From Spirochaetia bacterium (GTDB taxonomy: Bacteria; Spirochaetota; Spirochaetia; CAKZLE01), in assembly GCA_963677595.1 (NCBI GenBank), contig OY782041.1, forward strand, positions 864,001 to 928,000: a stretch of 64,000 nucleotides of DNA, given 5' to 3'. Positions 10,620 to 43,748 of the stretch are shown piece by piece. How positions within the stretch are numbered: position 1 is the first letter of the stretch; each line of letters starts with the position of its first letter. Position numbers and translations under genes: made by a program. The notes below the pieces were generated by a model, which was not told where the DNA came from, ran no database searches, and saw nothing but the letters and a program-made list of their open reading frames with translations.

Positions 10620-12135
<1,516 letters not shown>

Positions 12136-12221
12136 ACTCAACTCCTTTACGCATTGTCTCTCATGCTTTAAACATTCATGAACAGGGAGTGCCATGCCCT
12201 CACCACCCATGATATACGATT

Positions 12222-12258: not shown

Positions 12259-12291
12259 CCTTTTATCACTGACCTTTGGCTACGGTAAGCA

Positions 12292-12543
12292 CTATAGGCT
12301 GATAATTACGAGGTTAATAAGGGTAATAAGAATTACTAGAACGGGCAGAAGTACAATCACGGGAGTGACTGCAGATAGTATCAGGGAGATACTCACGACA
12401 GAGAGGAGGAGAAGAAGGGATACGATTAAGAACGCCTTGAAAGATTCGGGTTGTTGTCCTGTTTGCTCAGACCGCTTCGCCATCCAGTCACTGTATGAGG
12501 GACGACGACTCGTGCGGGAGCAATTCTCCATACACATTGTCAT
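12292..12543 (-). CDS. Putative ilv-leu operon leader peptide (83 aa, Ile/Leu/Val-rich C-terminal half)
   Basis: 33 of the last 45 codons are Ile/Leu/Val, many of them rare (CTA, TTA, ATA, GTA, ATT, CTT); AGAGGT RBS; lies between the promoter and ilvN. Confidence 0.78.
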   Translation of the reverse strand: MTMCMENCSRTSRRPSYSDWMAKRSEQTGQQPESFKAFLIVSLLLLLSVVSISLILSAVTPVIVLLPVLVILITLINLVIISL

Positions 12544-12573
12544 AATATACCTCTGTATATACGTATTTGTCTT

Positions 12574-12602
12574 AATGTATAACCCTGCGGTGAGATAGTC
12601 AA
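12574..12602 (-). promoter_or_regulatory. Sigma70 promoter of the leader/ilv-leu operon
   Basis: Minus strand TTGACT-N17-TACATT. Confidence 0.6.
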
Positions 12603-12702
12603 GAAGCATCATGAATTTTATCAGTATATTTCCTGCATAAATATTACCCTTTTTGCATAATTCATATTGCTAATCTTAATCCCGTGCTTTATGCTCCTGA
12701 CT

Positions 12703-14001: not shown

Positions 14002-14019
14002 GAGCAACAGGAGTCTTAC

Positions 14020-15027: not shown

Positions 15028-15168
15028 ACCTACCGAAACCCTATCTTGACACCACTCTATCAGACTGTATCAATATACTGTTTTTATACCGAAAACTGCA
15101 TATTGTGTGGACAAAACAGGTCTTCTACCGTATAGTGAAGTTTTAAGATTCATGGAGGTACTAAACGT

Positions 15169-16164
15169 ATGAAAAAGATTCTATCATTACTCATCCTGAT
15201 CACACTCATCGCCGCTCCAGTGTTTGCCCAGGGGGGCATGGAAGACGAAGGCAAGATCAAAGTCGGTTTCTCGAAGATCATCCAGCACCCGGCACTCGAC
15301 GCAGTCGAGCAGGGCGTCATGGACGTCCTCACTGAAGAGGGTGTCAATGTCTCATTCGATCTTCAGAACGCTAACGGCGATATGACCACCGCGAACTCCA
15401 TCGCCCAGAAGTTCAAGGCAGACAAGGTGGACTTCGCAGTCGGTATCGCGACCCCGACCGCACAGGCCCTTGCCAACGTCATCACTGACGGGGTGGTCAT
15501 CTACTCGGCAGTCACCGACCCGGTAGCTGCAGGACTCGTAGAATCATACGATAAAGGATATATGAACATCACCGGTGTCTCTGACATGACCCCGGTAGAT
15601 GCACAGGTCAAGATGCTCAAGGACCTTGCGGGCGTCACCAAGCTCGGCCACGTCTACACCAGCGGTGAGGCGAATGCAGTACTGCTCGCAGACATGACCA
15701 AGGCTGCCTGTGAGAAATACGGGATCAAGTTCGTTCCCGCAGCAGTCACCAACACCTCAGAGGTGAAGCAGGCTATTCAGTCCATCGCTGACAAGATCGA
15801 CGGTCTCTATGTCTCTACCGACAACACCGTCGTCTCAGCTATGCCTTCACTCGTGGATGTTGCGAACACCAAGGGTATCCCGGTACTTACCGCTGACCCG
15901 ACCTCCTCTACGGGTATCGGACTCGAAGTCCTGATCGCCTGGGGCTTCGACTACTACAAGGTCGGACGAGCTACCGGGTTCCTCATCAAGGACATCATCG
16001 ACGGTGCTAAGCCTGCTGACATCGGGACAGTCTTCATGACCGAGGCTTCTGACATCGAACTCTGGATCAACCTCGACAATGCCAAGAAACTCGGGATCGA
16101 GATCCCTGAGGAGATGATCAGGAATGCGACTGCCGTCATCGAGAATGGAGAGACCAAGTATTAA
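15169..16164 (+). CDS. ABC transporter substrate-binding protein (ABC_sub_bind, aromatic amino-acid type)
   Basis: Signal peptide; QHPALDA, NANGD, IATPTAQ, AVTDPV, TDNTV motifs. Confidence 0.88.
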   Translation: MKKILSLLILITLIAAPVFAQGGMEDEGKIKVGFSKIIQHPALDAVEQGVMDVLTEEGVNVSFDLQNANGDMTTANSIAQKFKADKVDFAVGIATPTAQALANVITDGVVIYSAVTDPVAAGLVESYDKGYMNITGVSDMTPVDAQVKMLKDLAGVTKLGHVYTSGEANAVLLADMTKAACEKYGIKFVPAAVTNTSEVKQAIQSIADKIDGLYVSTDNTVVSAMPSLVDVANTKGIPVLTADPTSSTGIGLEVLIAWGFDYYKVGRATGFLIKDIIDGAKPADIGTVFMTEASDIELWINLDNAKKLGIEIPEEMIRNATAVIENGETKY

Positions 16165-16166
16165 TC

Positions 16167-17063
16167 ATGATTGAAGGAATTATTGTCGACGGCCTGATCT
16201 TCTCATTACTGGCACTGGGAGTGTTCATCAGCTTCAGGATCCTGGACTTCCCGGACCTGACGGTTGACGGATCGTTTGCTACTGGTGCCGCGATTGCGGC
16301 TATATGCATCATCAACGGTCTCGGCATCCTCGTTGCCACGCTCCTCGCCTTCATCGGCGGGGCGCTGGCCGGGGTACTTACCGCTGCCATTCACACGAAA
16401 CTCAAGATCCCGAACCTCCTGTCCGGGATCCTGGTCATGACCATGCTCTACTCGATCAACATCAGGATCCTCGGGGGACGGGCGAATGTCCCGCTGCTCA
16501 GGATCGATACGCTGTTCACCAAGGTGATCAGTCTCGGCGGGGCCATGCCGAGGGAGTACAGCCTGCTGATCTTCATGGTCCTCTTCGTGGGGATCATCAA
16601 GGTGCTCACCGATACCTTCTTCCGTACGGACCTCGGCATCACGCTCGGTGCGCTCGGGAACAATGAGCAGATGATCAAGACCAACGGGGTCAACCCCGAC
16701 ACCATCAAGGTCATCGGCCTTGCCCTCTCGAACGGCCTGGTCGCCCTCTCCGGGGCACTCCTCGGCCAGTACCAGGGGTTCGCTGATGCGAAACTCGGGC
16801 AGGGGATGATCGTTGAGGGACTCGCGGCAGTCATGCTCGGGGAGTTCCTCCTCAGGTCCAACAAGATCTTCTACATCACGTTGAGGATCGTGCTCGGGGC
16901 TATCCTCTACAAGGGCATCATGTTCTTCGGGCGGTACTACGGGTACTACATCCACATGACACCAAGCGACCTGAAGATGATCACCAGTATCCTGGTCATC
17001 CTCTCCCTGGTCATCGCCAAGAGTCAGGAAGCCGCTGGACAGAGGAGGAAAGAACGAAAATGA
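16167..17063 (+). CDS. ABC transporter permease (BPD_transp_2)
   Basis: Hydrophobic; FRILDFPDLTVDGSF, SNGLVALSG, GQGMIV. Confidence 0.9.
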   Translation: MIEGIIVDGLIFSLLALGVFISFRILDFPDLTVDGSFATGAAIAAICIINGLGILVATLLAFIGGALAGVLTAAIHTKLKIPNLLSGILVMTMLYSINIRILGGRANVPLLRIDTLFTKVISLGGAMPREYSLLIFMVLFVGIIKVLTDTFFRTDLGITLGALGNNEQMIKTNGVNPDTIKVIGLALSNGLVALSGALLGQYQGFADAKLGQGMIVEGLAAVMLGEFLLRSNKIFYITLRIVLGAILYKGIMFFGRYYGYYIHMTPSDLKMITSILVILSLVIAKSQEAAGQRRKERK

Positions 17064-17854
17064 TCAGACTCGAATCAATCTCAAAAGTCTTTCATCCCGG
17101 TACGGTGAATGAGAACCTGGCAATGAACAAGGTCTCCCTGAACGTGAACCCGGGGGACTTCATCACGATCGTCGGAAGCAACGGGGCGGGAAAGACCACC
17201 CTGTTCAACCTCATCTCAGGATCGATCTTCCCCAGCGGGGGAACGATCCACATCCACGATGAGGAGATGACGAAGGTGCCTGAGTACAGGCGTGCGAAAT
17301 ACATCGGGAGGATCTTCCAGGACCCTACCCTCGGTACGGCTGCGAACATGTCTCTCGAAGACAATATGGTCATCTGCAGCAAGAAGGGGTTCAAGGGTAT
17401 CAGGATGAGCCTCAACCATGCACTTCGCAGGAAGTTCTCTGAAGAGCTCAAGCCGCTCGACATGGGGCTCGAGAACCGGCTGAAGGACAATGTCGGCCTG
17501 CTCTCGGGAGGCCAGAGGCAGGCCCTCACCCTCCTGATGACCGTCCTCTCCCGTCCTGACCTGCTGCTGCTCGATGAGCATACCGCAGCCCTGGACCCGA
17601 GGAACGCCCAGATCGTCCTGGACCTGACCCAGCAGTTCATCACTGATTACAACCTCACGGCTATGATGATCACCCACAACATGAAGCACGCCATCGACTA
17701 CGGCAACCGGCTGCTCATGATGGACAAGGGGGAGATCATCCTCGATGTCGCCGGCGAGGAGAAGGAACGGCTCACCGTCGATGCCCTCGTGAAGAAGTTC
17801 CACGAGATCAGGCGGGTCGAGTACGCGACCGACGAGGACCTCCTGGTGACCTGA
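17060..17854 (+). CDS. ABC transporter ATP-binding protein
   Basis: GSNGAGKT, LSGGQRQ, LLLDEHTAALDP, ITH. Confidence 0.93.
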   Translation: MIRLESISKVFHPGTVNENLAMNKVSLNVNPGDFITIVGSNGAGKTTLFNLISGSIFPSGGTIHIHDEEMTKVPEYRRAKYIGRIFQDPTLGTAANMSLEDNMVICSKKGFKGIRMSLNHALRRKFSEELKPLDMGLENRLKDNVGLLSGGQRQALTLLMTVLSRPDLLLLDEHTAALDPRNAQIVLDLTQQFITDYNLTAMMITHNMKHAIDYGNRLLMMDKGEIILDVAGEEKERLTVDALVKKFHEIRRVEYATDEDLLVT

Positions 17855-17882
17855 AGAAACCGGGATTAATTTTGGAACTATC

Positions 17883-17917
17883 GAAGCAGCAGGTTTGAAT
17901 CCTGCTGCTTCTTTTTA
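17883..17917 (+). terminator. Rho-independent terminator of the ABC operon
   Basis: GAAGCAGCAGG-N7-CCTGCTGCTTC followed by T5. Confidence 0.88.
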
Positions 17918-17951
17918 TATACTGACGGTAACGAGCAGCAGGAGTGATTAG

Positions 17952-18860
17952 ATGGATGTATTGAGGATCAGCGAAGAGATAGCGGAGGCCTTAAGAACCG
18001 GGAAGCCGGTCGTGGCCCTGGAGACGACGATCGTCTCCCATGGGATGCCCTACCCGGAGAACGTCGAGACAGCACGGCTGCTCGAGCGGACGGTCAGGGA
18101 GAATGGTGCAGTCCCGGCGACGATCGCCATCCTGGGGGGCAAGGTCCATGTAGGGATCACGGAGGATGAACTCGAGTTCCTCGCCACCAGCGATGCTATC
18201 ATAAAGGCCAGCAGGCGGGACTTGCCCGTTGTCTTCGCCAAGGGACTCCATGCAGCCACCACGGTCGCCACCACCATGATCTGTGCCAATATGGCCGGGA
18301 TCAGGATCTTCGCCACCGGCGGGGTCGGGGGCGTCCACCGCGGGGCCCAGCGGACCTTCGACATCTCGGCAGACCTCCAGGAACTCGGCAGGACGAATGT
18401 CGCCGTCATCTCGGCAGGCTCGAAGTCGATCCTCGACCTCCCCCTCACCCGCGAGTACCTCGAGACCCTCGGGGTCCCAGTCCTCGGTTACGGGACCGAC
18501 GAGCTGCCAGCCTTCTACACCCGGGAGAGCGGGCTTTCCGTCGACTTCCGGGTAGACTCCCCTGAAGAGGCCGCTGCCGTCCTCCATGCGAAATGGGACA
18601 ATAGCCTCGACGGCGGCGTCATGATCACCAACCCGATCCCAAAGGAGTACGCCCTCGACAAGGCCTATATAGATGCCATGATCGAGGAAGCCGTCTCGAA
18701 CGCCCGGGAGCAGGGGATCGAGGGCAAGGAGGTGACCCCCTTCCTGCTGGACCGGGTCAAGGAGCTGTCCGGGGGAAGGAGCCTGAAGGCGAACATCGAG
18801 CTGGTCAGGAACAATGCAGCCGTCGCGGCACGGATCGCTGAAGCATACTGGAGGGACTGA
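17952..18860 (+). CDS. psuG: Pseudouridine-5'-phosphate glycosidase
   Basis: VALETTIVSHGMPYP, ATTVATTM, ATGGVGGVHRG, DISADL, VTPFLL. Confidence 0.93.
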   Translation: MDVLRISEEIAEALRTGKPVVALETTIVSHGMPYPENVETARLLERTVRENGAVPATIAILGGKVHVGITEDELEFLATSDAIIKASRRDLPVVFAKGLHAATTVATTMICANMAGIRIFATGGVGGVHRGAQRTFDISADLQELGRTNVAVISAGSKSILDLPLTREYLETLGVPVLGYGTDELPAFYTRESGLSVDFRVDSPEEAAAVLHAKWDNSLDGGVMITNPIPKEYALDKAYIDAMIEEAVSNAREQGIEGKEVTPFLLDRVKELSGGRSLKANIELVRNNAAVAARIAEAYWRD

Positions 18861-20053
18861 TGGGACGATTTGACTTTGACCTGCCGATACACAGGGGCGG
18901 GACCGACTCGGTCAAGTGGGACCCGAGAACGCTCGAGCTGCTCACCGGGTCTGCGACTGCACTGCCCATGTGGGTTGCGGACATGGACTTCACCGCACCT
19001 GCGGAGGTGATCGATACCCTGAAAGAACGATCGCTACACGGCGTGTTCGGGTACCCGAGCGAGACTGCCGTCGAGGGGACCCTTGCATCCTTCCACAGGT
19101 GGGCAGAGACCCGTCACCAGTGGACTATCCCCTCAGGGGAAGCCCTCTACTCACCGGGATTGCTGACCTCGATCGCCATCCTCATGAACCAGCTGACCGA
19201 ACCGGGAGACGGGATCCTCATCCAGACCCCGGACTACAAGCCATTCTTCGACATGGTACACCGCAATGGGCGGATCTTCGTGGAGAATCCTCTCTCCTAC
19301 GACCGGGAGGGCCGACGGTTCACCCTCGATCTCGAGGATCTCGAAAGGAAACTCTCTTCGGGGAAGGTCAAACTCATGGTCTTCTGTTCCCCCCACAACC
19401 CGGCAGGCCGGGTCTGGACCGGGGAGGAGATCAGTGAGGTTCTGCTCCTCTGCGACCGGTACGGTGTGCAGGTCATCTCTGATGAGATCCATGCCGACAT
19501 GGTCCTTGATGCGCATACCCACATACCACTGGCAATGGCAGGGAGGGAGATGAGCCTCCCGCCCATCACCTGCATGGCTCCGTCGAAGACCTTCAACATC
19601 GCCGGGGAACATTTCTCCCTGACGATCATCCCGGACCCGAACGTCAGGGAAGGGTTCAGGAAGAACCTGCAGCGGCTGAACCTCTCGCATCCGGGAGTCC
19701 TCATCCTCAATGCAGCGCGGGCTGCATACGACCATGGGGGACCCTGGCTTGATGAGCTGCTAGGATACCTGCAGGGGAATATAGCGGTGATGGAGAAGAG
19801 ATTCAAAGGACTTCGGACGCTGAGGCTGATCAGGCCGGAAGCGAGCTTCATCGCCTTCATCGATGCTGAAGGCTTGCTGCAGGAGGCAGGGGACAGGAGC
19901 CTCGCCACCTATATCGCGGGGAGGTGTGACGTGGCCCTCCATGACGGGCTCTGGTTCGGGGAGAGGGGCCGGGGATTCGTCCGTATCAACTACGGGACCC
20001 AGCGGGACCGTCTCAAGGATGCCCTTGACCGGTTCTCGGCAGCCGGGCTATGA
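18860..20053 (+). CDS. PatB/MalY-family PLP-dependent C-S lyase
   Basis: SVKWD, PMWVADMDF, CSPHNPAGRVW, SDEIHAD, APSKTFNIAG. Confidence 0.92.
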   Translation: MGRFDFDLPIHRGGTDSVKWDPRTLELLTGSATALPMWVADMDFTAPAEVIDTLKERSLHGVFGYPSETAVEGTLASFHRWAETRHQWTIPSGEALYSPGLLTSIAILMNQLTEPGDGILIQTPDYKPFFDMVHRNGRIFVENPLSYDREGRRFTLDLEDLERKLSSGKVKLMVFCSPHNPAGRVWTGEEISEVLLLCDRYGVQVISDEIHADMVLDAHTHIPLAMAGREMSLPPITCMAPSKTFNIAGEHFSLTIIPDPNVREGFRKNLQRLNLSHPGVLILNAARAAYDHGGPWLDELLGYLQGNIAVMEKRFKGLRTLRLIRPEASFIAFIDAEGLLQEAGDRSLATYIAGRCDVALHDGLWFGERGRGFVRINYGTQRDRLKDALDRFSAAGL

Positions 20054-30187: not shown

Positions 30188-31732
30188 TTAGTGTGCTTCA
30201 ACCAGGCCCAGGACTTCAGCCTTGAAATCGGAGAACTCGATCCCGTTCTCCTCACAGAAGTCCCTGAGGATCACGGTCTTCGAGGGGACCTCCAAGCCGA
30301 GAGCCTCCTCGATGGTCTCGAGCGAGACCCCCATATCGATCACGTCAGCGACCGTGCTCTTACCCTTGATGTCAATAACCCCGGCAGCCGTAACGGTCTC
30401 TTCCTCATGCTCTTCTTCAGGCAGGTCCGTGACGGTCGTCCCCGGCAGTTCGAAGACGAAAGCCCCGCTGAGTTCTGCATACTGTGCATCGGTGATCTTC
30501 CCGGCTTCTTTGAGCATAGCAAGCCCCCGGTCAGTGAGGATCGACTCTTCACCGATGGTGAACGGCAGTCCTGCCCACAGGGCTGTCAGGTACCTGATGC
30601 TGTCAGTCCCTATCGCGACATAGAGCTCCTCGACATCCTTGGCCAGCACGGAATCTGCGATCGCGGTATCGTAGCCGTAGGCTTCTGCCAGGAACTCCGC
30701 GGGAATACCGAAGGCTGCCTCGACGTCAGCGAAGCTGTAGGAGCCCCTGATGTCGGCGGGATCGGAAGCTCCGGCGAACTCGCCTTCCGTGATCAGTTTC
30801 GGGATCTTCCCTCCTTCAGTCTGCCACCAGCCGATTGCCATGGTCAGGAAGATGCCTCCGAACATGATCACCAGGAGTACAGGGGCGATGACCTTCCGCG
30901 AGATGGCGAGGGTACTGCCGCTCTTCGGCCCGGTCACGTCCACGGTCTTCACCACGGGACAGGCAGCCTCGGAGGTACACTCCATACAGGAGATGCACTG
31001 GTGGTCACGTACCCGCTCCCCGGTCGAGACGGAGATGCCCATCGGGCAGGCACGGTCGCAGGCTCCGCAGTCGATGCAGGTGGCAGCCTTCCTCCTGACG
31101 GGGAAGATCCTGAACCAGTTCGTCATCCCGATCAAGGCTCCCATGGGGCAGGCATACCGGCAGAACGGCCGGGGGACGATGAGCGATAAGAGTATCACCA
31201 GTCCCAGGGTAACATAGCCGGTGATCGCGACCTCACCGGTCCAGAAGTTGAATAATGCATAGTAGGGGTCATAATCGGCGAAGATGAGGGTAGCTGACTT
31301 GGCGGTCATCACCACGACCCAGATGAGGACCACATACCTGAGGTATCGAAGGACCTGGTCCAGGGTGTTGGGGATGATCTTCCCGTACCGTTTCTTGAAG
31401 AGCTTCTTCCCGAGCTTCCCTATCCAGTCCTGGAAGGTCCCGAAAGGACAGACCCAGCCGCAGAAGAGCGGCCCGAAGAGGACGGCGCTGATTAGGACGA
31501 TCCCGGCAAGCACCAGTGATGATGCATGGATCTTACTGATGAAGGACCCTGCTGCGATCAGGTTATAGAGGGTGACGACCCCGCCGAAGGGGCATATGGC
31601 ATGCAGGGAAGCCCCTGCTATGAACGGGATGGTGATCCCGGACTCTGCCAGCGTATGTGCGACCGCGGTCAGTGCGATCAGTAGAAAGAAGAAGAGTTGG
31701 ATGCCCTTTCTCAAGCGGTTTCTCTTTTTCAT
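30188..31732 (-). CDS. NapH/MauN/YccM-like membrane 4Fe-4S protein with a soluble C-terminal extension
   Basis: CPFG, FCGWVCPFG, FCRYACPMG, CIDCGACDRACP, CISCMECTSEAACP. Confidence 0.85.
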   Translation of the reverse strand: MKKRNRLRKGIQLFFFLLIALTAVAHTLAESGITIPFIAGASLHAICPFGGVVTLYNLIAAGSFISKIHASSLVLAGIVLISAVLFGPLFCGWVCPFGTFQDWIGKLGKKLFKKRYGKIIPNTLDQVLRYLRYVVLIWVVVMTAKSATLIFADYDPYYALFNFWTGEVAITGYVTLGLVILLSLIVPRPFCRYACPMGALIGMTNWFRIFPVRRKAATCIDCGACDRACPMGISVSTGERVRDHQCISCMECTSEAACPVVKTVDVTGPKSGSTLAISRKVIAPVLLVIMFGGIFLTMAIGWWQTEGGKIPKLITEGEFAGASDPADIRGSYSFADVEAAFGIPAEFLAEAYGYDTAIADSVLAKDVEELYVAIGTDSIRYLTALWAGLPFTIGEESILTDRGLAMLKEAGKITDAQYAELSGAFVFELPGTTVTDLPEEEHEEETVTAAGVIDIKGKSTVADVIDMGVSLETIEEALGLEVPSKTVILRDFCEENGIEFSDFKAEVLGLVEAH

Positions 31733-31930
31733 CGTGATTCTCCCCTGTATTACGTAGTGGGGTAAGTATACCACCAAACCAGCATATTCCTCAAATTAAG
31801 TTTTCTCCATCTCACCTTAGCCTGAGGATAACACTGGTATCTGGAGGCGAATTTTCTTGAGGCTCACCGGATACATACAATCGATGAATCGTTGTTTTTT
31901 TCCAACAATTCAATACTGTCTCACTCATCA

Positions 31931-32001: not shown

Positions 32002-33405
32002 ATGTTATCAAGATTCACTGTCGGGAACTTTCTTTCCTTTAAAAGACCGCAAACCTTTTCCATGATCGCCGGTCCCATACAAAAACACAAAGAACGGCTG
32101 TACCAGGCTCAGGACATGAAACTCTTGAAGTTCAGTTCGATCTATGGGGCTAATGCAGCAGGAAAGTCGAATCTCGTGAAGGCTATGAAGTTCGCGAGAG
32201 ATCTCATCGTACAGGGAACAGATAAGGTCCCTGATTCCAGCTGTTTCAAGCTTGATAGGACTTATCAGGATATTCCCTCGTACTTCGAGTTCGAGATCTG
32301 TATCTCCGGACTGATGTACAGCTATGGGTTCGAGATGCTTCTTGCAAAGAAGGAGATAACCGAGGAATGGCTGATCCAACTGGGAGATGGGAAGGACCAG
32401 GAACTATTCTATCGGAATACCGTCACTGGGAAATATGATCTTGATGAGACACTGCTCAGCCGTAACGAAGACATCGGTCGCCTTGGCATCTATATCAGCG
32501 ATCTGAGTGCTGTGAAGGATAGATTCTTCCTCAAGGACATCGTAACGAACAAAGAGACTGCGTACCTGGCGAATCCCAGGCTCAGGATCTTCAAAGAGAT
32601 CTTTCAATGGGTCTCCTCCCTGGATATCTCCTTTCCCAATTCCCCAGTTTCCGGGTATACCTGCTTCTTGGCAACAGCTACTGACCAGATCCTGGAAGCT
32701 GTCAGGACCTTCGCAACCGGCATCAGTCATGTAGAAGCAAGGGAAGTGAAGAAAGAGGCTGTCCTGGAAGATGCCGCCCCTGCTGCCAGAAAGGAGATAT
32801 CCAGGGTATTGGCAGACCTGCCCGGCAGTACAGCCAAGGGAGCGCGTTTCAACTGTAATGGGAAACTCTATCTTGTACACATGAACGGGGATGAGCAGGT
32901 CTTCAATGAGATTACCTTTGCACATGATAATCTCAAGCATATCCCCTTCACGCTGGCAGAGGAGTCAGATGGGACACAACGTCTGTTGGACATGCTGACT
33001 GTTCTTATATGTACGAAAGAGCCTGCGGTATTCATCATAGATGAGATCGACAGGAGCCTGCACCCGCAGATGACTGTCCATTTCGTCAAGAACTTCCTCT
33101 CCTTAGCGGCGAGCAAGGACATACAGCTCATCATCACCACACATGAAAGCCACCTTCTTGATCTCTCGATCCTCAGGCAGGATGAGATCTGGTTTGCTGA
33201 AAAGAACCATGCGGGAGCGACACTCCTGACACCCTTTGACCGGTTCAAGGAGCGATTCGACAAGAAGATCGAAAGGGCTTACCTCGATGGGAGGTACGGC
33301 GGAGTCCCTCTCTTTGATTCTTTCTACTTTCCTACGAGGTATACTCAAGAGGAAGAATCGGAGGACATGGTGGGAGAAGCTTGCAGATGGGGCCAAACCG
33401 AATGA
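32002..33405 (+). CDS. AAA_21 ATPase (RloA/AbiLi-like)
   Basis: NFLSFK, IYGANAAGKSN, ESDGT, IDEIDRSLHP, TTHE, DEIWFAEK, YLDGRYGGVP. Confidence 0.9.
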   Translation: MLSRFTVGNFLSFKRPQTFSMIAGPIQKHKERLYQAQDMKLLKFSSIYGANAAGKSNLVKAMKFARDLIVQGTDKVPDSSCFKLDRTYQDIPSYFEFEICISGLMYSYGFEMLLAKKEITEEWLIQLGDGKDQELFYRNTVTGKYDLDETLLSRNEDIGRLGIYISDLSAVKDRFFLKDIVTNKETAYLANPRLRIFKEIFQWVSSLDISFPNSPVSGYTCFLATATDQILEAVRTFATGISHVEAREVKKEAVLEDAAPAARKEISRVLADLPGSTAKGARFNCNGKLYLVHMNGDEQVFNEITFAHDNLKHIPFTLAEESDGTQRLLDMLTVLICTKEPAVFIIDEIDRSLHPQMTVHFVKNFLSLAASKDIQLIITTHESHLLDLSILRQDEIWFAEKNHAGATLLTPFDRFKERFDKKIERAYLDGRYGGVPLFDSFYFPTRYTQEEESEDMVGEACRWGQTE

Positions 33406-34127
33406 GAATCGAGCAACCGTATGGCTATCGATTCGATCAGGGATTAGGTCCCATCGAGCCGAAATATAAATATTTCATAGCATGTGAGGGGAAAAGAACT
33501 GAGTATGTGTATTTCAAAGGACTGATGAGAGCCAAATCTGAACTCGGTATTGATCCTTTGATAGATGTCATCCCTATACAACATGATTCTCAGACAGGCA
33601 GTCATCCATTGAGTATCCTTGATGAAACACAGGAAGTTCTGTACGACAGTGAACGATACTTCCCTGAAACAGATACTGTTTGTATTATTGTGGACAGGGA
33701 TGCCGGCAGTTTCTTTCCAACACAATATGAAGAAATGGTAGAGCAATCCGCATCATTGGGATTTAGATTGATCGTCTCCAATCCATGTATAGAGCTTTGG
33801 CTGTTGCTTCATTATACAGACCTTTCGAACTACGACCTCCAACAGATCCGTGAAAACAGGAAGAGGGGTAATCGAACGTATACCGAGATCCTGCTTAAAG
33901 ATGACCATCTCCAGGGAAGCTATAATAAACACCGCATTCAGTTCGATAGAAATTTCAAGCCGTATGTCCATAGAGCAATCAAGAACTCCAAGATGCATGC
34001 AACTGCACTAGACCAACTGAAGGTAAACGTCGGTACTAACATCGGGCTGCTCATCGGGGAGATGCTGAAAGAGCCTGCAGATCAAGCCGATACACACTCC
34101 CTAAGCTCCTGCACTCATAAATGCTGA
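33402..34127 (+). CDS. RloB-family (TOPRIM-like, AbiLii-like) protein
   Basis: IACEGKRTEYVYF, VDRD, SNPCIELWLLLH, TNIGLL; ATGA overlap with rloA. Confidence 0.88.
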   Translation: MRIEQPYGYRFDQGLGPIEPKYKYFIACEGKRTEYVYFKGLMRAKSELGIDPLIDVIPIQHDSQTGSHPLSILDETQEVLYDSERYFPETDTVCIIVDRDAGSFFPTQYEEMVEQSASLGFRLIVSNPCIELWLLLHYTDLSNYDLQQIRENRKRGNRTYTEILLKDDHLQGSYNKHRIQFDRNFKPYVHRAIKNSKMHATALDQLKVNVGTNIGLLIGEMLKEPADQADTHSLSSCTHKC

Positions 34128-34240: not shown

Positions 34241-35626
34241 ATGCCGGTATTCGTTAACAGGACCCTCAACATGAAGAAGATCAGGATGATCGGTTTCGAC
34301 ATGGACTATACCCTTGTCGCCTACCATACCGAGATCTTCGAGAAGCAGGTCTATGACCTGGTCATGCAGCGTCTTGCGGAACAGGAGGGGTATCCTGAGG
34401 CAGTCACCACCCTTCCCTTCGAGTTCGACCGCTCTATCGTGGGGCTCGTCATCGACCTGCGCAATGGGTACCTGCTCCAGCTGAGCCGGTACCATAAGGT
34501 GAAGCGCTCCTACTACGGGCTGGATGAGGTCCCGTTCCGGGAGCAGAACGCCATCTACCGTAACATGGCCATCGACCCCCGGGATCCCGACTATGTCAGC
34601 CTCGACACGGCCTTCGCCATCTCGACTGGCGTCATCTTCTCCCAGCTCGTCCAGCTCAAGAAGGAGGGTGCGGACCTCCCCGGCTATGCTGACATACTCT
34701 CCACGGTGGGATCCACGATGGACAGCATCCACCAGGACGGGACCCTCAAGGAGATCCTCAAGGCAGACTTACCCAGGTTCGTCATCAGGGATCCGAAGGT
34801 GGCACGGGTACTGGAACGGTACAAGCGCAACCATAAGCAGCTGATGATCATCACTAATTCCGATTACTCCTATACGAAGGCCCTGTTAGACTATGCCCTC
34901 ACCCCATACCTCAAGGATCACCAGAGCTGGAGGGAACTCTTCGACATCGTGATCACCTACGCCGACAAACCGAGGTTCTTCGAGCGGAACAACCGCTTCC
35001 TTGCCGTCGACCCCGATACCGGCCTGATGACCAACCACGAGGGGCCGATCACCAATGGCATCTACCAGGGCGGCTGCTCGAGCAGGCTCCAGGAGGACCT
35101 GGGGCTGCAGGGCAGCGAGATCCTCTATCTCGGTGACCACATCTACGGGGATGTCGTCTCGATCAAGAAGACCTGCAACTGGCGTACAGCCCTGGTCCTC
35201 GGGGACCTCGACCGGGAGATGGAGGGCGTACGCGCAGCGTACACCACCCAGGCACGGATCGATGAACTCATGGACCAGAAGGCAGTACTGGAGCAGGAGA
35301 TCAACGAGGCTGACATCAAGCGGTATGAATCGCAGGGACGGACCTACACCCCGCTCGACTCCCAGTACCAGCAGATCGACGGGATCAACAACGAGATATC
35401 ACGGCTCATCGGTGCATACTCCACCTTCTTCAACCCCTACTGGGGGGAGATCCTGCGTGCTGGGTCGGAGGAGAGTCGTTATGCTGACCAGGTAGAACGG
35501 TATGCCTGCATCTTCATGACGAAGGTCTCGGACCTTTATGACTATTCACCGAGGTTCTACTTCAGGCCTGGCAAGCGTATCCTGCCCCACGAGCAGGCAG
35601 TCATCGATGAGATGGGAACGGATTAG
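34241..35626 (+). CDS. HAD-IG family 5'-nucleotidase (cN-II-like)
   Basis: GFDMDYTL, ITNS, KPRFF, YLGDHIYGD, WRT, NPYWG, QVERYAC. Confidence 0.92.
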   Translation: MPVFVNRTLNMKKIRMIGFDMDYTLVAYHTEIFEKQVYDLVMQRLAEQEGYPEAVTTLPFEFDRSIVGLVIDLRNGYLLQLSRYHKVKRSYYGLDEVPFREQNAIYRNMAIDPRDPDYVSLDTAFAISTGVIFSQLVQLKKEGADLPGYADILSTVGSTMDSIHQDGTLKEILKADLPRFVIRDPKVARVLERYKRNHKQLMIITNSDYSYTKALLDYALTPYLKDHQSWRELFDIVITYADKPRFFERNNRFLAVDPDTGLMTNHEGPITNGIYQGGCSSRLQEDLGLQGSEILYLGDHIYGDVVSIKKTCNWRTALVLGDLDREMEGVRAAYTTQARIDELMDQKAVLEQEINEADIKRYESQGRTYTPLDSQYQQIDGINNEISRLIGAYSTFFNPYWGEILRAGSEESRYADQVERYACIFMTKVSDLYDYSPRFYFRPGKRILPHEQAVIDEMGTD

Positions 35627-36309
35627 ATTGAATCAGTGACGAAGGGGTGCCTCAGGTACTCGAAGATCGCCGCGACCTTGTCGCTCAGCGAGACGATGAA
35701 GCTCTCTGAGTACTTCGGGAGCTGGCGTGTCTTCGGGAACATATGCTTCACGATGATATCGGCCTCACGGTGTGAGACTTCGAAGTGGAGCCGTGCATTC
35801 TCCAGCGCGATATGGGGATGCTCCTTCCCGTGGGTAAGACGGGAGGCATCAGCCTTCTTCTTCTCCCTCCAGTCATAGAGGAAGAAGTCATGGAGGAGCC
35901 CGCCCCGGGCTGCGGCATGGTAGTCTATGCTGAGCAGCTTGGAGATCGCATACGCGATGAAGGAGACGCGCTGCACATGGTCGTAGATGTGGCCTGAGTG
36001 GTGGTGGTAATCCTGCAGCTTGAGGAACTCCTCATGGTAGAGGATATCACCGACGAGCGAATGGTGCTCCAATCGGGTCGGCCTCAGCTTCGTGAAGGTG
36101 GTATGTTCCGCACGCACGGAGATATAGAAGAGATGCAGTCCGTACAGGAGCGCAGCAAGCGCAGAGATACTGATCATCAGAGATACATGGGATAACAGAA
36201 GGCTGCTGGTCACCGTCACTGACAGCAGGATAAGCACCAGGTAGAACAGGCGTCTTACAGTACGACGATCGAGCCATGAATGTTTCTGGCCGTCAACTCG
36301 TATACACAT
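35623..36309 (-). CDS. HD-domain phosphohydrolase with N-terminal TM segments
   Basis: HHSGHIYDH, GLLHDFFLYDW, HPHIALENA, HMFP, SDK. Start codon uncertain. Confidence 0.8.
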   Translation of the reverse strand: MCIRVDGQKHSWLDRRTVRRLFYLVLILLSVTVTSSLLLSHVSLMISISALAALLYGLHLFYISVRAEHTTFTKLRPTRLEHHSLVGDILYHEEFLKLQDYHHHSGHIYDHVQRVSFIAYAISKLLSIDYHAAARGGLLHDFFLYDWREKKKADASRLTHGKEHPHIALENARLHFEVSHREADIIVKHMFPKTRQLPKYSESFIVSLSDKVAAIFEYLRHPFVTDSI

Positions 36310-36423: not shown

Positions 36424-36465
36424 GTAACCTGCGTTACTTTCACGATCCGCCCCTTCCGTTATATT
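36424..36465 (+). promoter_or_regulatory. GTAAC-N4-GTTAC palindrome at -41.5 plus -10 box (class II Crp/Fnr-type activated promoter)
   Basis: Palindrome 36424-36437 (centre 36430.5), TATATT at 36460-36465, ATG at 36472, no good -35 box. Confidence 0.65.
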
Positions 36466-36471
36466 CTACCT

Positions 36472-37695
36472 ATGATGAAAGCAAAGATAGAGTTGACAGA
36501 TACGTTATATACGATCATAACGACCTACCCGCAGACGCGGGAGGTCTTCGTCGCAAACGGCTTCCCCCAGTTCGCCGATGATGCGCAGCTACAGGGGATG
36601 GGTAAGATGCTGACCTTCAAGGCAGCCATGCTCGCGAAGAAGAAGAACCCCGAGATCTTCCTCTCCCTGCTCGATGAGGTAATCGAGCAGCATGCCATGA
36701 TGGCTGAGGAGGGGGTCCAGGCACCGGCTGTCAGGCAAAGTGCCTGCTCGATCGCGGGGATCCTCCCCTGCCCGGTGAAGATCCCGCTGCTCGACGGGTT
36801 CGGCGAGTTCCTCAAAGGCTATGAAAAGGAACGGGGCAAGACCATCAGCTACCGGCTCAAGTCCGCCTCCGGCGGCCTCGGCTGGCTGGAGGAGGAGATA
36901 CGGGACGCGAAGGGCCCTGAGGACCTTCCTGACCTGGTCATCTCCGCAGGTTTCGAGCTCTTCTTCGACCGAGAACGCTACGGTGCCTTCCGGGATGAGG
37001 GCATGTTCAAGGACCTCTCCTCCTTACCTGAGTTCAACCGCAGTTTCGACGGCCTCGGGCTGAAGGACCCGAAGAAGAACTACTCCATCGTCGGGGCGGT
37101 ACCAGCGATCTTCCTCGTGGACACCCTGGAACTGAAAGGACGTAAGGTCCCAAAGACCTGGGACGACATCCTCTCCGAGGAGTTCGCAGGCTCGATCAGC
37201 CTGCCGGTCGAGGACTTCGACCTCTTCAACGCGGTCTGCCTGACCCTCTACCGGGAACGGGGGATCGAGGCGATCAAAGCCCTGGGACGGAACATGCTCT
37301 CCTCGATGCACCCCGCCCAGATGGTCAAGAACCGGAGGAACGAGGAGAAGCCTGCCGTGACCGTGCTCCCCTGGTTCTTCACCAGGATGATCTTCGGCAA
37401 CACCAGCCTCCAGGTCGTATGGCCCGAGGATGGGTCCATCCTGAGCCCGATCTTCGTCGCGGCGAAGGAGGAGAAAGCCGAGGAGCTCGCACCGGTGGTG
37501 GAGTTCTTCGAGTCAGAGGCAGTGGGAAAGATCTTCATGGAGCGGGGATTCTTCCCGAGCGTGAACCCGCAGGTAGACAACACGATCTCGGCAGACCAGA
37601 AGATGCAGTGGCTCGGCTGGGACTTCATCTACGACCATGACCTCTCTGCACTCATCAGGGAGTGCACGGAGGCATTCGAAGGAGCACAGGCATGA
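36472..37695 (+). CDS. DUF1858-like domain fused to an SBP-fold domain; no signal peptide
   Basis: N-terminus TLYTIITTYPQTREVFVANGF (DUF1858-like); LPCPVK; PKTWDDIL and WPEDG of PotD/AfuA-type SBPs; no hydrophobic leader or lipobox. Confidence 0.78.
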   Translation: MMKAKIELTDTLYTIITTYPQTREVFVANGFPQFADDAQLQGMGKMLTFKAAMLAKKKNPEIFLSLLDEVIEQHAMMAEEGVQAPAVRQSACSIAGILPCPVKIPLLDGFGEFLKGYEKERGKTISYRLKSASGGLGWLEEEIRDAKGPEDLPDLVISAGFELFFDRERYGAFRDEGMFKDLSSLPEFNRSFDGLGLKDPKKNYSIVGAVPAIFLVDTLELKGRKVPKTWDDILSEEFAGSISLPVEDFDLFNAVCLTLYRERGIEAIKALGRNMLSSMHPAQMVKNRRNEEKPAVTVLPWFFTRMIFGNTSLQVVWPEDGSILSPIFVAAKEEKAEELAPVVEFFESEAVGKIFMERGFFPSVNPQVDNTISADQKMQWLGWDFIYDHDLSALIRECTEAFEGAQA

Positions 37696-38396
37696 ACCTG
37701 GTAACCGTATCGGGCCCTCCGTCATCGGGGAAGACCTCGGTCATCCTCAAGACGCTGGCCTCCCTGAAGGACCGCTCGCTCAAGCCGGCAGTCGTCAAGT
37801 TCGACTGCCTCTATACCGATGATGACCAGCTCTACGAAAGAGCCGGCATCCCGGTGCGCAAGGGGCTCTCCGGCTCTCTCTGCCCCGACCATTACTTCGT
37901 CTCGAACATCGAGGCCGTGGTGGACTGGGGCGTGGAATCTGAGTTCGACCTCCTGATCAGCGAGTCGGCAGGCCTCTGCAACCGGTGCTCACCCTACATC
38001 AAGGGGATCAAGGCGGTCTGCGTCATCGACAACCTGAGCGGGATCAACACCCCGAAGAAGATCGGCCCGATGCTCAAGACTGCCGACATCATCGTCATCA
38101 CCAAGGGGGACATCGTCTCCCAGGCTGAGCGAGAGGTCTTCGCCTCCCGGGTCCAGGCAGTCAACCCGAGGGCCGTCATCCTGAACGTCAACGGGCTCAC
38201 CGGCCAGGGCTGTTATGAGCTGAGCACCCTGCTGCTCGATGAGGATATGCAGATCACCTCCCTCAAGGGGAAGGAGCTGCGCTTCAGCATGCCATCAGCA
38301 CTCTGTTCCTACTGTCTCGGTGAGAAACGGATCGGCGAGAGCTACCAGATGGGCAACGTGAGGAAGATGGATATGGAAGGGGGGAAGCGGTCATGA
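37692..38396 (+). CDS. HypB/UreG/CobW-like (G3E) GTPase, Cys-rich
   Basis: GPPSSGKT, LCPDH, ESAGLCNRCSPY, ITKGD, C-terminal CSYC; ATGA overlap with the upstream gene. Confidence 0.85.
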   Translation: MNLVTVSGPPSSGKTSVILKTLASLKDRSLKPAVVKFDCLYTDDDQLYERAGIPVRKGLSGSLCPDHYFVSNIEAVVDWGVESEFDLLISESAGLCNRCSPYIKGIKAVCVIDNLSGINTPKKIGPMLKTADIIVITKGDIVSQAEREVFASRVQAVNPRAVILNVNGLTGQGCYELSTLLLDEDMQITSLKGKELRFSMPSALCSYCLGEKRIGESYQMGNVRKMDMEGGKRS

Positions 38397-39397
38397 TCTA
38401 CGAACCACTCAAGACCCTGCTCGAAGCGCACCCCTACATAGACAGCTTCCTTCAGGACAACCATATACCAATCGAGGGGAATGAGGAGAGGAATGTCAGG
38501 GAGATCATCGAGAGCCTCCCGGAAGAGACCATCGAGGAGTTCGCCTACGACATCGACGCCATCGAGCAGAATCTCGTCCTCTTCATCACCCAGATGCAGG
38601 AGTTCCTCCAGGATGATGAGCAGGCAGTCACCTCGATCACCATCTTCCCCGGGACTGACAAGAGCGGAACCCCGGAGGGGTTCGAGCGCCTCGAGCTCAT
38701 CCCGGGACAGATCATCTCCATCGTGGGACCGACCGGGTCCGGCAAGAGCCGGCTCCTCGCAGACATCGAGTGGGTCGCACAGGCAGACACCCCGACCAAC
38801 CGCACAGTCTACGTGAACGGGGAGATCCCCGAATCCAAGTGGCGCTTCTCGATCTCGGACAAGCTCGTCGCACAGCTCTCGCAGAATATGAACTTCGTCA
38901 TGGACCTGAGTGTCGAGGAGTTCGTCAGGATGCATGCGGAGAGCCGCATGCTCGAGCATATAGACACGGTCGTCGACGGGATCATCGCGAAGGCTAACGA
39001 CCTCGCAGGCGAGCAGTTCACCCCCGACACACCGATCACCTCCCTGAGCGGCGGGCAGAGCCGGGCCCTGATGATCGCCGATACGGCGGTCCTCTCACGC
39101 TCCCCGGTCATCCTCATCGATGAGATCGAGAATGCGGGGATCGACCGGAAGCGGGCACTCGAGCTGCTCCTTTCCGAAGACAAGATCGTCCTCATGGCGA
39201 CCCACGACCCCGTCCTCGCACTGCTCGGGGACAAGCGGCTCGTCATCAGGAACGGCGGGATAGAGAAGGTCATCGAGACCACCGAGGAGGAGAGGTCGAT
39301 CCTCTCCGAACTCGAGGAGCTCGATGAACGGGTACAGACATTACGGAATCTCCTCAGGGCAGGAGAACTGTTACATGAGAACAAGAGGAGTAATTAA
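38393..39397 (+). CDS. ABC-type ATPase with an N-terminal DUF1858-like extension; no cognate permease
   Basis: GPTGSGKS, LSGGQ, ILIDEIE, ATHD; ~75-aa N-terminal helical domain (TLLEAHPYIDSFL). Confidence 0.85.
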   Translation: MIYEPLKTLLEAHPYIDSFLQDNHIPIEGNEERNVREIIESLPEETIEEFAYDIDAIEQNLVLFITQMQEFLQDDEQAVTSITIFPGTDKSGTPEGFERLELIPGQIISIVGPTGSGKSRLLADIEWVAQADTPTNRTVYVNGEIPESKWRFSISDKLVAQLSQNMNFVMDLSVEEFVRMHAESRMLEHIDTVVDGIIAKANDLAGEQFTPDTPITSLSGGQSRALMIADTAVLSRSPVILIDEIENAGIDRKRALELLLSEDKIVLMATHDPVLALLGDKRLVIRNGGIEKVIETTEEERSILSELEELDERVQTLRNLLRAGELLHENKRSN

Positions 39398-39398
39398 T

Positions 39399-39638
39399 AT
39401 GCACGAAGGATGTTCAGCACAGTTTACAGGCGGGTCTGAAGTAGTGGACAAATTGAGGATGATGGGATTCTCGCAGGAGAGCCTCCCCTCCCCGTTCGTC
39501 ATCGAATGTGAGCATTGCGGCACGTCGTTCATCATGAGGACGTTCGAGGCTTCCTGCCACTGCGGCATGGTCTACGGGGTGACCCCCTGCCATGCATCTG
39601 CAGCAGAGAACGTGAAGGCTGCAGGCGTAGGCTACTGA
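39399..39638 (+). CDS. Small Cys/His-rich putative metal-binding protein (79 aa)
   Basis: MHEGC...CEHC...CHCG...TPCH; GAGGAG RBS; starts 1 nt after the ATPase stop. Confidence 0.75.
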   Translation: MHEGCSAQFTGGSEVVDKLRMMGFSQESLPSPFVIECEHCGTSFIMRTFEASCHCGMVYGVTPCHASAAENVKAAGVGY

Positions 39639-42297: not shown

Positions 42298-42522
42298 TCA
42301 CATAATAGATAAGGTATTTTGCCCCAATCCCTCGATTTCTATATCCACAGTATCCCTTGGTAGATGTTTCTTGAATGATTCGAAGTAATTCGGTTCTGTC
42401 TTTGTTCCTTCACAGAGAATCAAGAAATATTCCCTATACTTCTTGAAACCAGTTCTTCTTGTTCTGGATTGCTTCACATATTTATGTTGTGTTTCTTTAT
42501 TGAACGTGTGGCTTCTACTCAT
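42298..42522 (-). pseudogene. Truncated RloB-family gene (N-terminal 74 aa only)
   Basis: FLILCEGTKTEPNYF motif present, then a stop; no DxD or SNPCxE motifs and no room for them before the cupin promoter region. Confidence 0.8.
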
Positions 42523-43748
42523 TCAACTCCCCAAACCTTCCGAAAATCCCCGATGAATGGGATCGCCCCATACCGTCCTTGAATATAATCATTCTCAAAA
42601 GAAGCATCATTACGTACCTTCTGCCCTTTTGGCATGATATAGTCGCTTAGTGAATACAAGTCAGTATCCTCAGAAGGGGTCTTTTCTGTGAACCATATCT
42701 GATCACGTCGAAAGACTTTCGTACGGAGCAGATTGGTATCATGAGTCGCAAAAATGAATTGTGCCTTATGTTGATTAGTCAAGCTGGAGTTGAACAATCT
42801 CACGATGGCAGTGGTAAGCTTTGGATGTAGTCTTGCATCTAATTCATCAACAACAAGCACCTTCCCATCCAGTAACGCAGCAAGTACCGGGCCCATCAGC
42901 CGAAAGAATTTTTTACTCCCTTCCGATTCCTGTGATTCAAAATCCAAATCTGTGCTGCCAACAATTCTGTTCTTTTCATCATATAGATTATGATAGGTCG
43001 AAATACGGGAGTTCTCCTTGCCCATCTCATGTTGGATATCAACATTCTTGATCCCCAGGTCAGCGATCTTCAACAGTTCGATTATTCTTTCTTTGTGCTC
43101 AGGAGACTGCAGCATCATCTTTTCAGTAAACTGCTGATAAACCCTATCCTCGATACCAGAAATGATAGTGAGATCATGGAACCAGTTAATGATTTTCCCG
43201 CTGATCTCTCCATTCAGTTGAGCACAGACTGAAAGGAATAATGCGTTGTTCCTTGTTCTTCCCTCTAATCCACTTCCTTCTGGAAAGAGTTTACTGAACA
43301 CCTGGATGTTCTCACCTTCCCTGATGAATAATGGATACTCTTTGATCTTACGACTGCTCAGTAACCACTCTGCTTGTATCGCAGAATCATCAGCTTCAAA
43401 TCCATATCGGTATTTTACCTGCCCGATCAGGAATGTGATCTCAAACTTAGATGGTTGGTGCAGGGTCTCCGTACTCAACCTGAAACAATCGATATGCAAT
43501 GGTTCGCCAAGTTGTACATCTTTTGACGAATTGAGAACTACCCATTTCATCTTCCCCAAAGCTTCAAGCAGATTCGATTTCCCACTCGCATTCGCCCCAT
43601 ACAGAACAGCACTCTTCAGGACCTGGTACCTGCCTGTGTCAATGATATTCTCTTCCCAATACTCCTTGATTGGGTTTGCAGCAATAAGATCAAGGGTCTT
43701 CTCATCCTTGAAGGATTTAAAATTACTACAGGTGAAATTGATTAACAT
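42519..43748 (-). CDS. AAA_21 ATPase (RloA/AbiLi-like), copy 2
   Basis: NFKSFK, YGANASGKSN, ESEGS, VDELDARLHP, ATHD, DQIWFTEK, YIQGRYGAIP; AT-rich. Confidence 0.9.
   Translation of the reverse strand: MLINFTCSNFKSFKDEKTLDLIAANPIKEYWEENIIDTGRYQVLKSAVLYGANASGKSNLLEALGKMKWVVLNSSKDVQLGEPLHIDCFRLSTETLHQPSKFEITFLIGQVKYRYGFEADDSAIQAEWLLSSRKIKEYPLFIREGENIQVFSKLFPEGSGLEGRTRNNALFLSVCAQLNGEISGKIINWFHDLTIISGIEDRVYQQFTEKMMLQSPEHKERIIELLKIADLGIKNVDIQHEMGKENSRISTYHNLYDEKNRIVGSTDLDFESQESEGSKKFFRLMGPVLAALLDGKVLVVDELDARLHPKLTTAIVRLFNSSLTNQHKAQFIFATHDTNLLRTKVFRRDQIWFTEKTPSEDTDLYSLSDYIMPKGQKVRNDASFENDYIQGRYGAIPFIGDFRKVWGVE

Follow-up and report, generated by a model that had tools for sequence, protein, structure and literature searches.

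An operon without a permease that combines a G3E-type GTPase, an ABC ATPase and a cytoplasmic solute-binding fold: a candidate metal-handling system under likely nitric-oxide control in a spirochaete

An ATP-binding cassette (ABC) ATPase is not always the motor of a transporter: in SufBC2D, a membrane-free ABC ATPase powers a soluble partner in metallocluster handling. The reviews of the two protein classes concerned here describe ABC ATPases as coupled to permeases (PMC3971661) and G3E GTPases as equipped with accessory proteins of their own (PMC9164220); all sources are cited for their available parts, and in those parts of the two reviews no case of direct coupling between an ABC ATPase and a G3E GTPase was found. 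Such a coupling is predicted for a four-gene operon of a Spirochaetia bacterium (assembly GCA_963677595.1), which lies in a window of 64,000 nucleotides, the whole stretch that was analysed (contig OY782041.1, positions 864,001 to 928,000). We consider it slightly more probable than not that the operon encodes a nitric-oxide-induced cytoplasmic machine with two NTPases, which handles metal and passes iron or an iron-sulfur (Fe-S) fragment to cluster enzymes such as the hybrid-cluster protein Hcp. The elements of the operon are the following.

36424..36437, no strand assigned: HcpR2-type operator GTAAC-N4-GTTAC, a perfect palindrome (sequence; consensus in PMC1274295)
36460..36465, + strand: -10-like hexamer, 5/6 to TATAAT, 22 nt past the operator; putative class II activator promoter
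36472..37695, + strand: gene 1, protein of solute-binding protein (SBP) fold, 407 aa (Pfam; model with a predicted local distance difference test score, pLDDT, of 89; class II fold; no signal peptide)
37692..38396, + strand: gene 2, G3E-type GTPase of an unnamed family, 234 aa (GPPSSGKT, CPDH, ESAG, TKGD, seven conserved Cys)
38118..38135, + strand: SQAERE helix of the GTPase, predicted coupling helix (invariant; lowest-error contacts in the predicted complex)
38393..39397, + strand: gene 3, ABC ATPase, 334 aa, with an extra N-terminal helical domain (full ABC motif set; D-loop NAGID)
39399..39638, + strand: gene 4, Cys-rich accessory protein, 79 aa (MHxGC N-terminus, four-Cys zinc ribbon, C64/H65)

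The operon shares parts with several described systems. With HypB/HypA and UreG it has in common a G3E G-domain carrying the Glu of ESAG, a Cys/His motif and a small zinc-ribbon partner that starts with MH[ED]. Its GTPase differs from HypB and UreG in scoring below their family cut-offs, in the TKGD of its G4 motif, in its extra Cys pairs and SQAERE helix, and in its partners, which are an ABC ATPase and a protein of solute-binding fold; moreover, most of the carrier genomes tested lack the nickel enzymes sought. SufBC2D, as generally understood, is likewise a soluble ABC machine, but the partner here is a GTPase instead of the SufB/D beta-helix, the operon has no desulfurase gene, and SufB/D (PF01458) has no match in the operon or the whole genome. 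The FbpABC systems, which are type I importers with class II SBPs, resemble the operon in the SBP fold, the full set of ATPase motifs and, by prediction, a partner helix in the Q-loop groove. The operon differs from them in having no permease, a cytoplasmic SBP with a DUF1858 domain, a groove predicted to be filled by the GTPase, and NAGID in place of SALD in the D-loop. To the HcpR2 regulon (hcp, frdX and hemerythrin-like genes; PMC1274295) it is related by the operator consensus, which in this genome also stands before hcp and before a hemerythrin-PAS gene. On the features tested, sequence comparison places the operon outside HypB, UreG, COG0523, HypA, ABC importers and SUF. The searched literature, which covers few subscription journals, yielded no description of it, and a solved relative of the GTPase-ATPase pair was not found either.

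The four genes are joined by two ATGA overlaps and a 1-nt gap (TAA-T-ATG). The tight coupling claimed by the sequence-only reading therefore stands, whereas the start it gave, 36424, is the first base of the operator and not the start of a gene. Pfam finds DUF1858 and SBP_bac_6 in gene 1, the cobW/HypB/UreG domain in gene 2 and ABC_tran in gene 3, and has no match for the 79-aa protein. The operon encodes no membrane protein, as had been proposed: the family alignments of all four proteins contain no hydrophobic segment, with every 19-residue window below 1.7 (n=51, 49, 44 and 48 proteins). These membrane and export calls use hydropathy as a crude proxy, and the lipobox pattern recovered 4 of 6 exported control SBPs.

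The 80 closest loci, with GTPase identities of 77-84%, come from Spirochaetota, Cloacimonadota, Fermentibacterota, Bacillota, Bacteroidota and other phyla. The order SBP-GTPase-ATPase-small protein is kept across them; the SBP is present in 77 and the ATPase in 78, and contig ends account for every miss. Among the genes around them, those for Rrf2 recur in 34 loci, those for Hcp in 24, for cupin in 21, for Crp/Fnr in 11 and for ferredoxin in 9; any one permease cluster appears in at most 4 of the 80. In a broader set, importer parts occur within 7 kb of 6 of 104 loci, in five of these at least 1.9 kb away. A permease may, on sequence grounds, be encoded in trans. Nevertheless, the operon is very probably not an importer, and the earlier idea of a soluble system gains support from the lack of a permease cluster and of signal peptides, from the conserved cysteines and from the predicted GTPase-ATPase interaction. 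By genome, the GTPase was found in 15 of 251 spirochaetes and 29 of 301 Bacillota, and in 13 genomes of a sample of 251 Bacteroidota; the family comprises 6481 clusters at 90% identity (E<=1e-20). A plasmid collection gave a single record, 2.1 Mb long and unannotated in the module region. A further cluster, made up mostly of Methanobacteriota, turned up in a feature search and may serve as a lead.

The GTPase matches PF02492 with 50.6 bits (cut-off 20.7). It has a Walker A motif, GPPSSGKT, and in G3 (ESAG) a Glu in place of Asp, the invariant E91. As the G3E superfamily of P-loop GTPases is defined by a Walker A motif and this replacement in G3 (PMC9164220), the protein is a member as judged from its motifs. 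Its G4, TKGD, aligns opposite NKID and NKTD, where NKxD is the guanine motif, and the nucleotide is presumably GTP. The residues C64, H67, C96, C99, C110, C205 and C208 are conserved in 80 of 80 homologues, so that the extra cysteines pointed out earlier (CPDH, CNRC, CSYC) are a family trait; CPDH aligns with the CH of HypB and the CPH of UreG. The SQAERE sequence is invariant in 154 unique family members from all three clades described below, and the HypB and UreG sequences aligned with it lack it. Membership in the named families was rejected in each case. The protein scores 52.2 bits against an equivalog cut-off of 121.2 for HypB (TIGR00073), and the genome has no PF00374 [NiFe]-hydrogenase as a client; for UreG (TIGR00101) the score is 26.3 against 204.2 bits, in a genome without a urease match. 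COG0523 (CobW, ZigA, Nha3) is defined by a CxCC motif and a C-terminal domain (PMC9164220), and the GTPase is a single domain with no CxCC and no CobW_C match.

The product of gene 3 matches PF00005 with 54.2 bits (cut-off 25). Its Walker A, Q-loop, LSGGQ, Walker B DE and H-loop are intact, the motif residues are invariant in 154 sequences, and the D-loop reads NAGID; by sequence it is an ABC ATPase, that is, a nucleotide-binding domain. Its N-terminal domain may resemble DUF1858, with an hhalign probability of 4.8% and an E of 0.008; DUF1858 is missing from the best 25 of 35 families for 48 members.

Co-folding of the GTPase with the ATPase gave a score of 0.84 for a 1:1 pair with custom alignments, while the best control reached 0.02. 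In a rough calibration, 0.84 was attained by 116 of 157 solved complexes and by 2 of 215 mismatched pairs. Three runs share at least 95% of the contacts, with a partner pLDDT of at least 85. The modelling check proposed with the sequence-only reading thus predicts an interaction, and we regard a complex of the two proteins as very probable. The best contacts join GTPase residues 143-149 (SQAEREV, directly past TKGD) to ATPase residues 160-170, 177-185 and 227-235. An alignment with the solved ATPase MJ0796 assigns the three ATPase segments, in this order, to the Q-loop, to the helix that opens the helical subdomain and to the one that follows LSGGQ. In ABC transporters the cleft for the permease coupling helix is the interface of the RecA-like and helical subdomains and includes the Q-loop (PMC3971661). 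The SQAERE helix is therefore predicted to occupy the ATPase groove that normally holds the coupling helix of a permease. The interface residues SQAERE, F177, H181 and D230 are 99-100% conserved in 154 sequences. Conservation of the ATPase interface columns is 0.93 against 0.77 for the rest, and 0.80 against 0.65 in the distant clades; in the GTPase the interface columns and the rest differ little. The model may be reusing a generic ABC groove. That it merely reproduces a similar known pair is less likely, because the aligned HypB and UreG are without the helix sequence and no close solved relative of the GTPase or the ATPase was found. Natural fusions are independent support for the pairing: of 91 longer relatives, 73 join a complete GTPase to a complete ABC ATPase. 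Among them is a cluster of 61 members from Clostridium beijerinckii, filed under many accessions, and in 8 loci the fusion is a single open frame. Three apparent SBP-GTPase fusions (P0296, P0360, P0373) were set aside, since the linkers of the two inspected look off-frame.

The SBP-fold protein has DUF1858 at residues 6-63 and SBP_bac_6 at residues 151-388 (Pfam). It had been described as lacking a signal, with an N-terminal DUF1858-like domain and an LPCP motif, and this description is borne out: the Cys of LPCP is the invariant C100. No lipobox occurs among 51 family members, and an N-terminal hydrophobicity of at least 2.2 was seen in 1 of the 51, a borderline case, compared with 6 of 6 exported control SBPs. 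C100 is conserved in 73 of 73 sequences and H280 is likewise invariant; the invariant residues of the cleft include Cys and His. The model (pLDDT 89) has as its top structural match the ferric-binding protein 1mrp (Z 22.8, root-mean-square deviation 3.4, 287 residues aligned), a match tied with other class II SBPs, and polyamine binders also have the fold. The nearest sequence match of the SBP domain is a protein that binds pyridoxal phosphate (PLP). Model residue 91 aligns to residue 1 of FbpA, which places C100 close to FbpA His9, a residue that we take to be an iron ligand. At two loci (L083 311-13600 and L117 4923-13292), two or three distinct signal-less SBP paralogues sit among TonB-dependent receptors or FecCD-type importers.

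Of gene 4, residues H2, C5, C37, C40, C53, C55 and C64 are conserved in 65 of 65 sequences. The cysteines named earlier (C, CxxC, CxC, CH) are thus conserved, although the CxC reads CPxC in homologues, and a four-Cys zinc ribbon follows from this. The family begins with MH[ED], and 45 of 49 members have a weak Pfam HypA match, at best with E 2.7e-5. Membership in HypA was rejected: the protein of the window has no match, and a homologue scores 21.7 against 28.9 bits in a match that covers the ribbon only. The fold search reached a best Z of 2.1 with no Foldseek match at E<=0.001, PDB sequences gave nothing better than E 0.05, and the atlas neighbours are hypothetical proteins throughout; the protein may nevertheless have a HypA fold. 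The protein is present in 65 of the 80 loci, and contig ends explain 9 of the 15 misses; since it is missing from 6 loci that reach far enough, it is an accessory component.

The consensus GTAAC-N4-GTTAC belongs to HcpR2, and an R-P recognition helix is tied to this motif (Rodionov et al. 2005, PMC1274295). The 4.33 Mb genome has four exact copies where 0.43 are expected, and 0-2 for each of the other spacings from 0 to 10. The exact copies precede the operon, hcp, a DUF438-hemerythrin-PAS gene and an unrelated ATPase, one each. The genome also encodes a Crp/Fnr protein with an R-P recognition helix, and from these sequence features HcpR2 control of the operon appears quite probable. Among 50 loci in which the SBP gene is apparently the first, an exact site lies within 260 nt of it in 12, compared with 6 of 2241 control windows; with one mismatch allowed, the numbers are 17 of 50 and 19 of 2241. 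The 50 loci include two near-duplicate pairs and three loci that actually have Rrf2 upstream. In 9 of the 12 exact-site loci, a hexamer matching TATAAT at 5/6 or 6/6 lies exactly 22 nt downstream on the operon side. Such a distance between operator and -10 element is the geometry of a class II activator promoter. With the spacing of operator, -10 hexamer and first ATG found here, transcription would start at or beside the ATG; the mRNA is possibly leaderless, and no ribosome-binding site precedes the first ATG. The two closest loci (L001, L002) show an equally short spacing from operator to ATG.

None of the 43 loci in which Rrf2, cupin, Crp/Fnr or hcp comes first has an exact site adjacent to the SBP gene, and Rrf2 is therefore probably an alternative regulator. 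In Fusobacterium, FN0128-FN0130 presumably represent this operon. The site of F. vincentii (L087 7719-7760) is identical in its letters to the one filed under FN0127 in Table S1 of PMC1274295. It probably drives the operon instead of the divergent radical-SAM-like gene, since a perfect TATAAT lies 22 nt downstream on the operon side. No such operon stands under the HcpR2 profiles of that table, and FN0130 occurs solely in transporter lists in the available part of PMC4234264. A hemerythrin-PAS protein is induced by nitric oxide in Desulfovibrio desulfuricans (PMC5701242), and in Clostridioides difficile HcpR activates hcp under nitric oxide (PMC12915319). The link to hcp, hemerythrin and Crp/Fnr that had been suggested is thus seen in both the neighbours and the common operator, and the operon is likely to be under nitric-oxide control. 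The operator lies in an intergenic region shared with a divergent gene (35623-36309, - strand), whose 228-aa product has a hydrophobic N-terminus, an HD-like motif and, at E<=0.001, nothing that matches Pfam; between the two sides, the -10 test points to that of the operon. At C1:1660000-1661926 (L168), the exact operator stands between the DUF438-hemerythrin-PAS gene and a nitroreductase gene, with the -10 hexamer facing the former.

Co-occurrence agrees in part with this link. A match to hcp was found in 28 of 29 carrier genomes tested and, among spirochaetes, in 14 of 15 carriers against 75 of 251 genomes overall, though 8 of the carriers belong to one genus. The gene lies within 7 kb in 34 of 103 loci and within about 6 kb in 8 of 10 close Bacillota carriers.

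A tree of 154 GTPases (midpoint-rooted, no outgroup) unites the high-scoring ones in one group with a local support of 0.93. In the main clade (104 loci), hcp, Crp/Fnr, Rrf2 or cupin genes lie within 7 kb of 60 loci and importer parts near 6, with mod-type genes near none. The sister clade (55 loci) has such regulators at only 3 of its loci; importer parts occur at 39, mod-type genes at 17 and nif genes at 8. Outside the main clade hcp neighbours none of 58 loci. The importers of the sister clade that were inspected by eye bring their own exported SBP and ATPase, and the clade retains signal-less SBPs, up to three per locus; methyltransferases adjoin 16 of the 55 loci. A fused form of the module is flanked by modA(BC) and nifH-nifI-nifD-nifK, and nifB, nifV and modB surround other members. 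A third, distant group of three loci (L105, L106, L107) combines a short ABC ATPase, the GTPase and a protein with an FeS domain (PF04060), without an SBP. The thread common to the clades is metal uptake together with complex metal clusters, and the GTPase-ATPase pair is constant.

Other observations concern individual loci of these clades. The sister module, often fused, stands in molybdate-uptake/nitrogenase clusters at L128, L129, L133, L134, L136 (about 7000-19500), L135, L152 and L155. At L127 (2130-7618) the main-clade member is directly followed by genes for a reductase that resembles NifH but scores under the nifH cut-off, for its 400-aa partner and for a FecCD importer. The third group's L105 set lies among genes of Cys/Met metabolism, and in P0155 and P0171 the GTPase is fused to a similar Cys-rich tail. 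At L020, L022, L031 and L033 a small ABC ATPase and a UPF0014 membrane protein, presumably the iron-export pair FetAB, are encoded downstream of the operon. At L061, L063, L070 and L074, an Rrf2 gene is preceded by NifS/NifU genes, which are 2-4 kb upstream of the operon and read in the other direction.

As to the cargo, matches to [NiFe]-hydrogenase were found in 9 of 30 main-clade carriers, to carbon monoxide dehydrogenase (CODH) in 7 and to urease in 2, and 18 carriers, this genome included, have none of the three. MoaC matches in 15 of the 30, and 10 are without all four; the nitrogenase alpha subunit is absent from all 5 of these 10 that were tested. Some of the carrier genomes are incomplete and many are kin, but at least four are single-contig and 99% complete. 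Nickel and molybdenum are thus unlikely cargoes in the main clade, because many carriers lack the enzymes concerned, and iron or an Fe-S fragment becomes the best remaining choice; we lean modestly towards such a cargo. SufBD is found in 19 of the 30 carriers and was not found in 11, with no anti-correlation to SUF, so the module neither needs nor replaces that system. This genome itself has NifS/NifU-like genes and no SufBD match. Binding of metal and its transfer to a client would accord with the conserved Cys/His residues and the gene neighbours.

Under the reading that we prefer, nitric oxide would lead the HcpR2-type Crp/Fnr protein to activate the operon together with hcp. The GTPase and ATPase would form a 2:2 core, a stoichiometry suggested by the fact that ABC ATPases and HypB act as dimers, and the loaded cytoplasmic binding protein would dock on it. 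Binding of ATP would close the ATPase dimer, and the two SQAERE helices would shift the GTPases as permease subunits would be shifted. The rearranged GTPases would then open the docked binding protein, and the metal would load the Cys/His site of the GTPase. Turnover of GTP, perhaps with the zinc-ribbon protein, would free the cargo to Hcp or to damaged Fe-S enzymes. More tentatively, and short of an even chance, the module may be an importer rebuilt without a membrane, in which the GTPase dimer replaces the permease, the closing ATPase would force cargo from the cytoplasmic SBP into the cysteine site of the GTPase, and a swapped SBP means a swapped cargo. A single ancient platform would then supply iron for Hcp and damaged Fe-S enzymes here, and molybdenum for the nitrogenase cofactor in the sister clade. 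To our knowledge, the nif-linked anaerobes of that clade lack NifQ.

Several findings weigh against the proposed machine. One carrier, G125, has no hcp match, and 61 of the 75 hcp-positive spirochaete genomes are without the module. The co-occurrence with hcp in Bacillota was rejected as evidence because the background is 221 of 301 genomes (73%). The loci were chosen for their closeness to two queries, and many of them are related. A site within one mismatch is lacking in 33 of the 50 first-gene loci, and the hexamer of hcp itself, at equal spacing, matches TATAAT at only 3/6. The complex model is of a 1:1 pair with a rough calibration. Proteins that bind sugar phosphates or PLP come to within about 1 Z unit of the top match of the SBP model, at 9-15% identity, and the fold match leaves the ligand unfixed. 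The sister clade points to molybdenum and metal-chelate import and not to nitric oxide.

These findings also bear on the alternatives. The operon could encode a dedicated maturase for the hybrid cluster of Hcp, by analogy with CooC/CooJ/CooT, which serve CO dehydrogenase, a relative of Hcp. The proximity of hcp, the common operator and the presence of hcp in nearly all carriers speak for it, but the many hcp-positive spirochaetes without the module, the carrier without hcp and the same GTPase-ATPase core in clades with no hcp neighbour make it unlikely. Since most hcp carriers do without the module, a helper in supply or repair is the likelier role than an obligate maturase. It is rather unlikely, too, that no metal is moved at all, with the SBP holding a small organic ligand or a nitrosylated species and the GTPase, powered by the ATPase, acting as a sensor or as an enzyme of the redox or Fe-S type. 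The PLP-binding relative, the sugar-phosphate and polyamine binders of like fold and the methyltransferases near sister-clade loci would fit such a role, and the seven conserved Cys of the GTPase, which exceed those aligned in HypB and UreG, could hold a resident cluster; against this stand the Cys and His in the invariant cleft of the SBP, the metal-cluster or metal-uptake genes next to all three clades, and the metallochaperone function of the characterised G3E GTPases (PMC9164220).

A chaperone for molybdenum or tungsten, as the sister clade appears to be from its mod-type (17 of 55) and nif (8 of 55) neighbours and from the fused form between modA(BC) and the nifH-nifI-nifDK genes, is very unlikely in the main clade. 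None of its 104 loci has a mod-type gene, MoaC was not found in half of the carriers, the five MoaC-less carriers tested also lack the nitrogenase alpha subunit, and the nif-mod cluster of this genome is far from the operon and has no second copy of the module; that cluster, with modAB and without a sister-clade module, lies at C1:33210-43720. Only a little chance is left for a nickel insertase pair of the HypA/HypB kind with extra subunits. The alignment of CPDH with the CH and CPH motifs and the MH[ED] start, ribbon and weak HypA match of gene 4 recall such a pair, but the bit scores are far below the HypB and UreG cut-offs (52 against 121 and 26 against 204), the HypA match, where its range is displayed, spans the ribbon alone, and 18 of the 30 carriers lack the three nickel enzymes sought. 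Least credible is an ordinary ABC importer with its permease elsewhere and the GTPase as a bystander. The SBP fold and the intact ATPase motifs would suit it, and the sister clade and a basal member (L146) are embedded in importer loci; yet the SBP has no export signal, the ATPase groove is predicted to be filled by the GTPase, natural fusions join the ATPase to the GTPase, and the adjoining importers that were inspected have an ATPase and an exported SBP of their own.

The flanks of the operon are unrelated to it, with the divergent HD-like protein on one side and a convergent HpcH aldolase on the other. Farther off, a membrane polyferredoxin (Fer4_5) of 529 aa is encoded at 30188-31777 (- strand); its C-terminal region is long and acidic and matches no family. 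Two loci with AAA_21 (AbiEii-like) ATPases lie in low-GC stretches at 32002-34127 (+ strand) and 42298-43748 (- strand); the RloB partner is intact at the former, and only a 74-codon RloB-like start is left at the latter.

Docking of the GTPase in the ATPase groove, if real, would be a new use of an ABC motor. Members of the family are annotated as parts of transporters, urease or hydrogenase in genomes without those systems. All four are small, soluble proteins, and residues to alter can be read from the predicted interface. The operon and its relatives are candidates for the means by which strict anaerobes rebuild metal centres after nitric-oxide damage, and those of the sister clade for molybdenum delivery in anaerobic nitrogen fixers.

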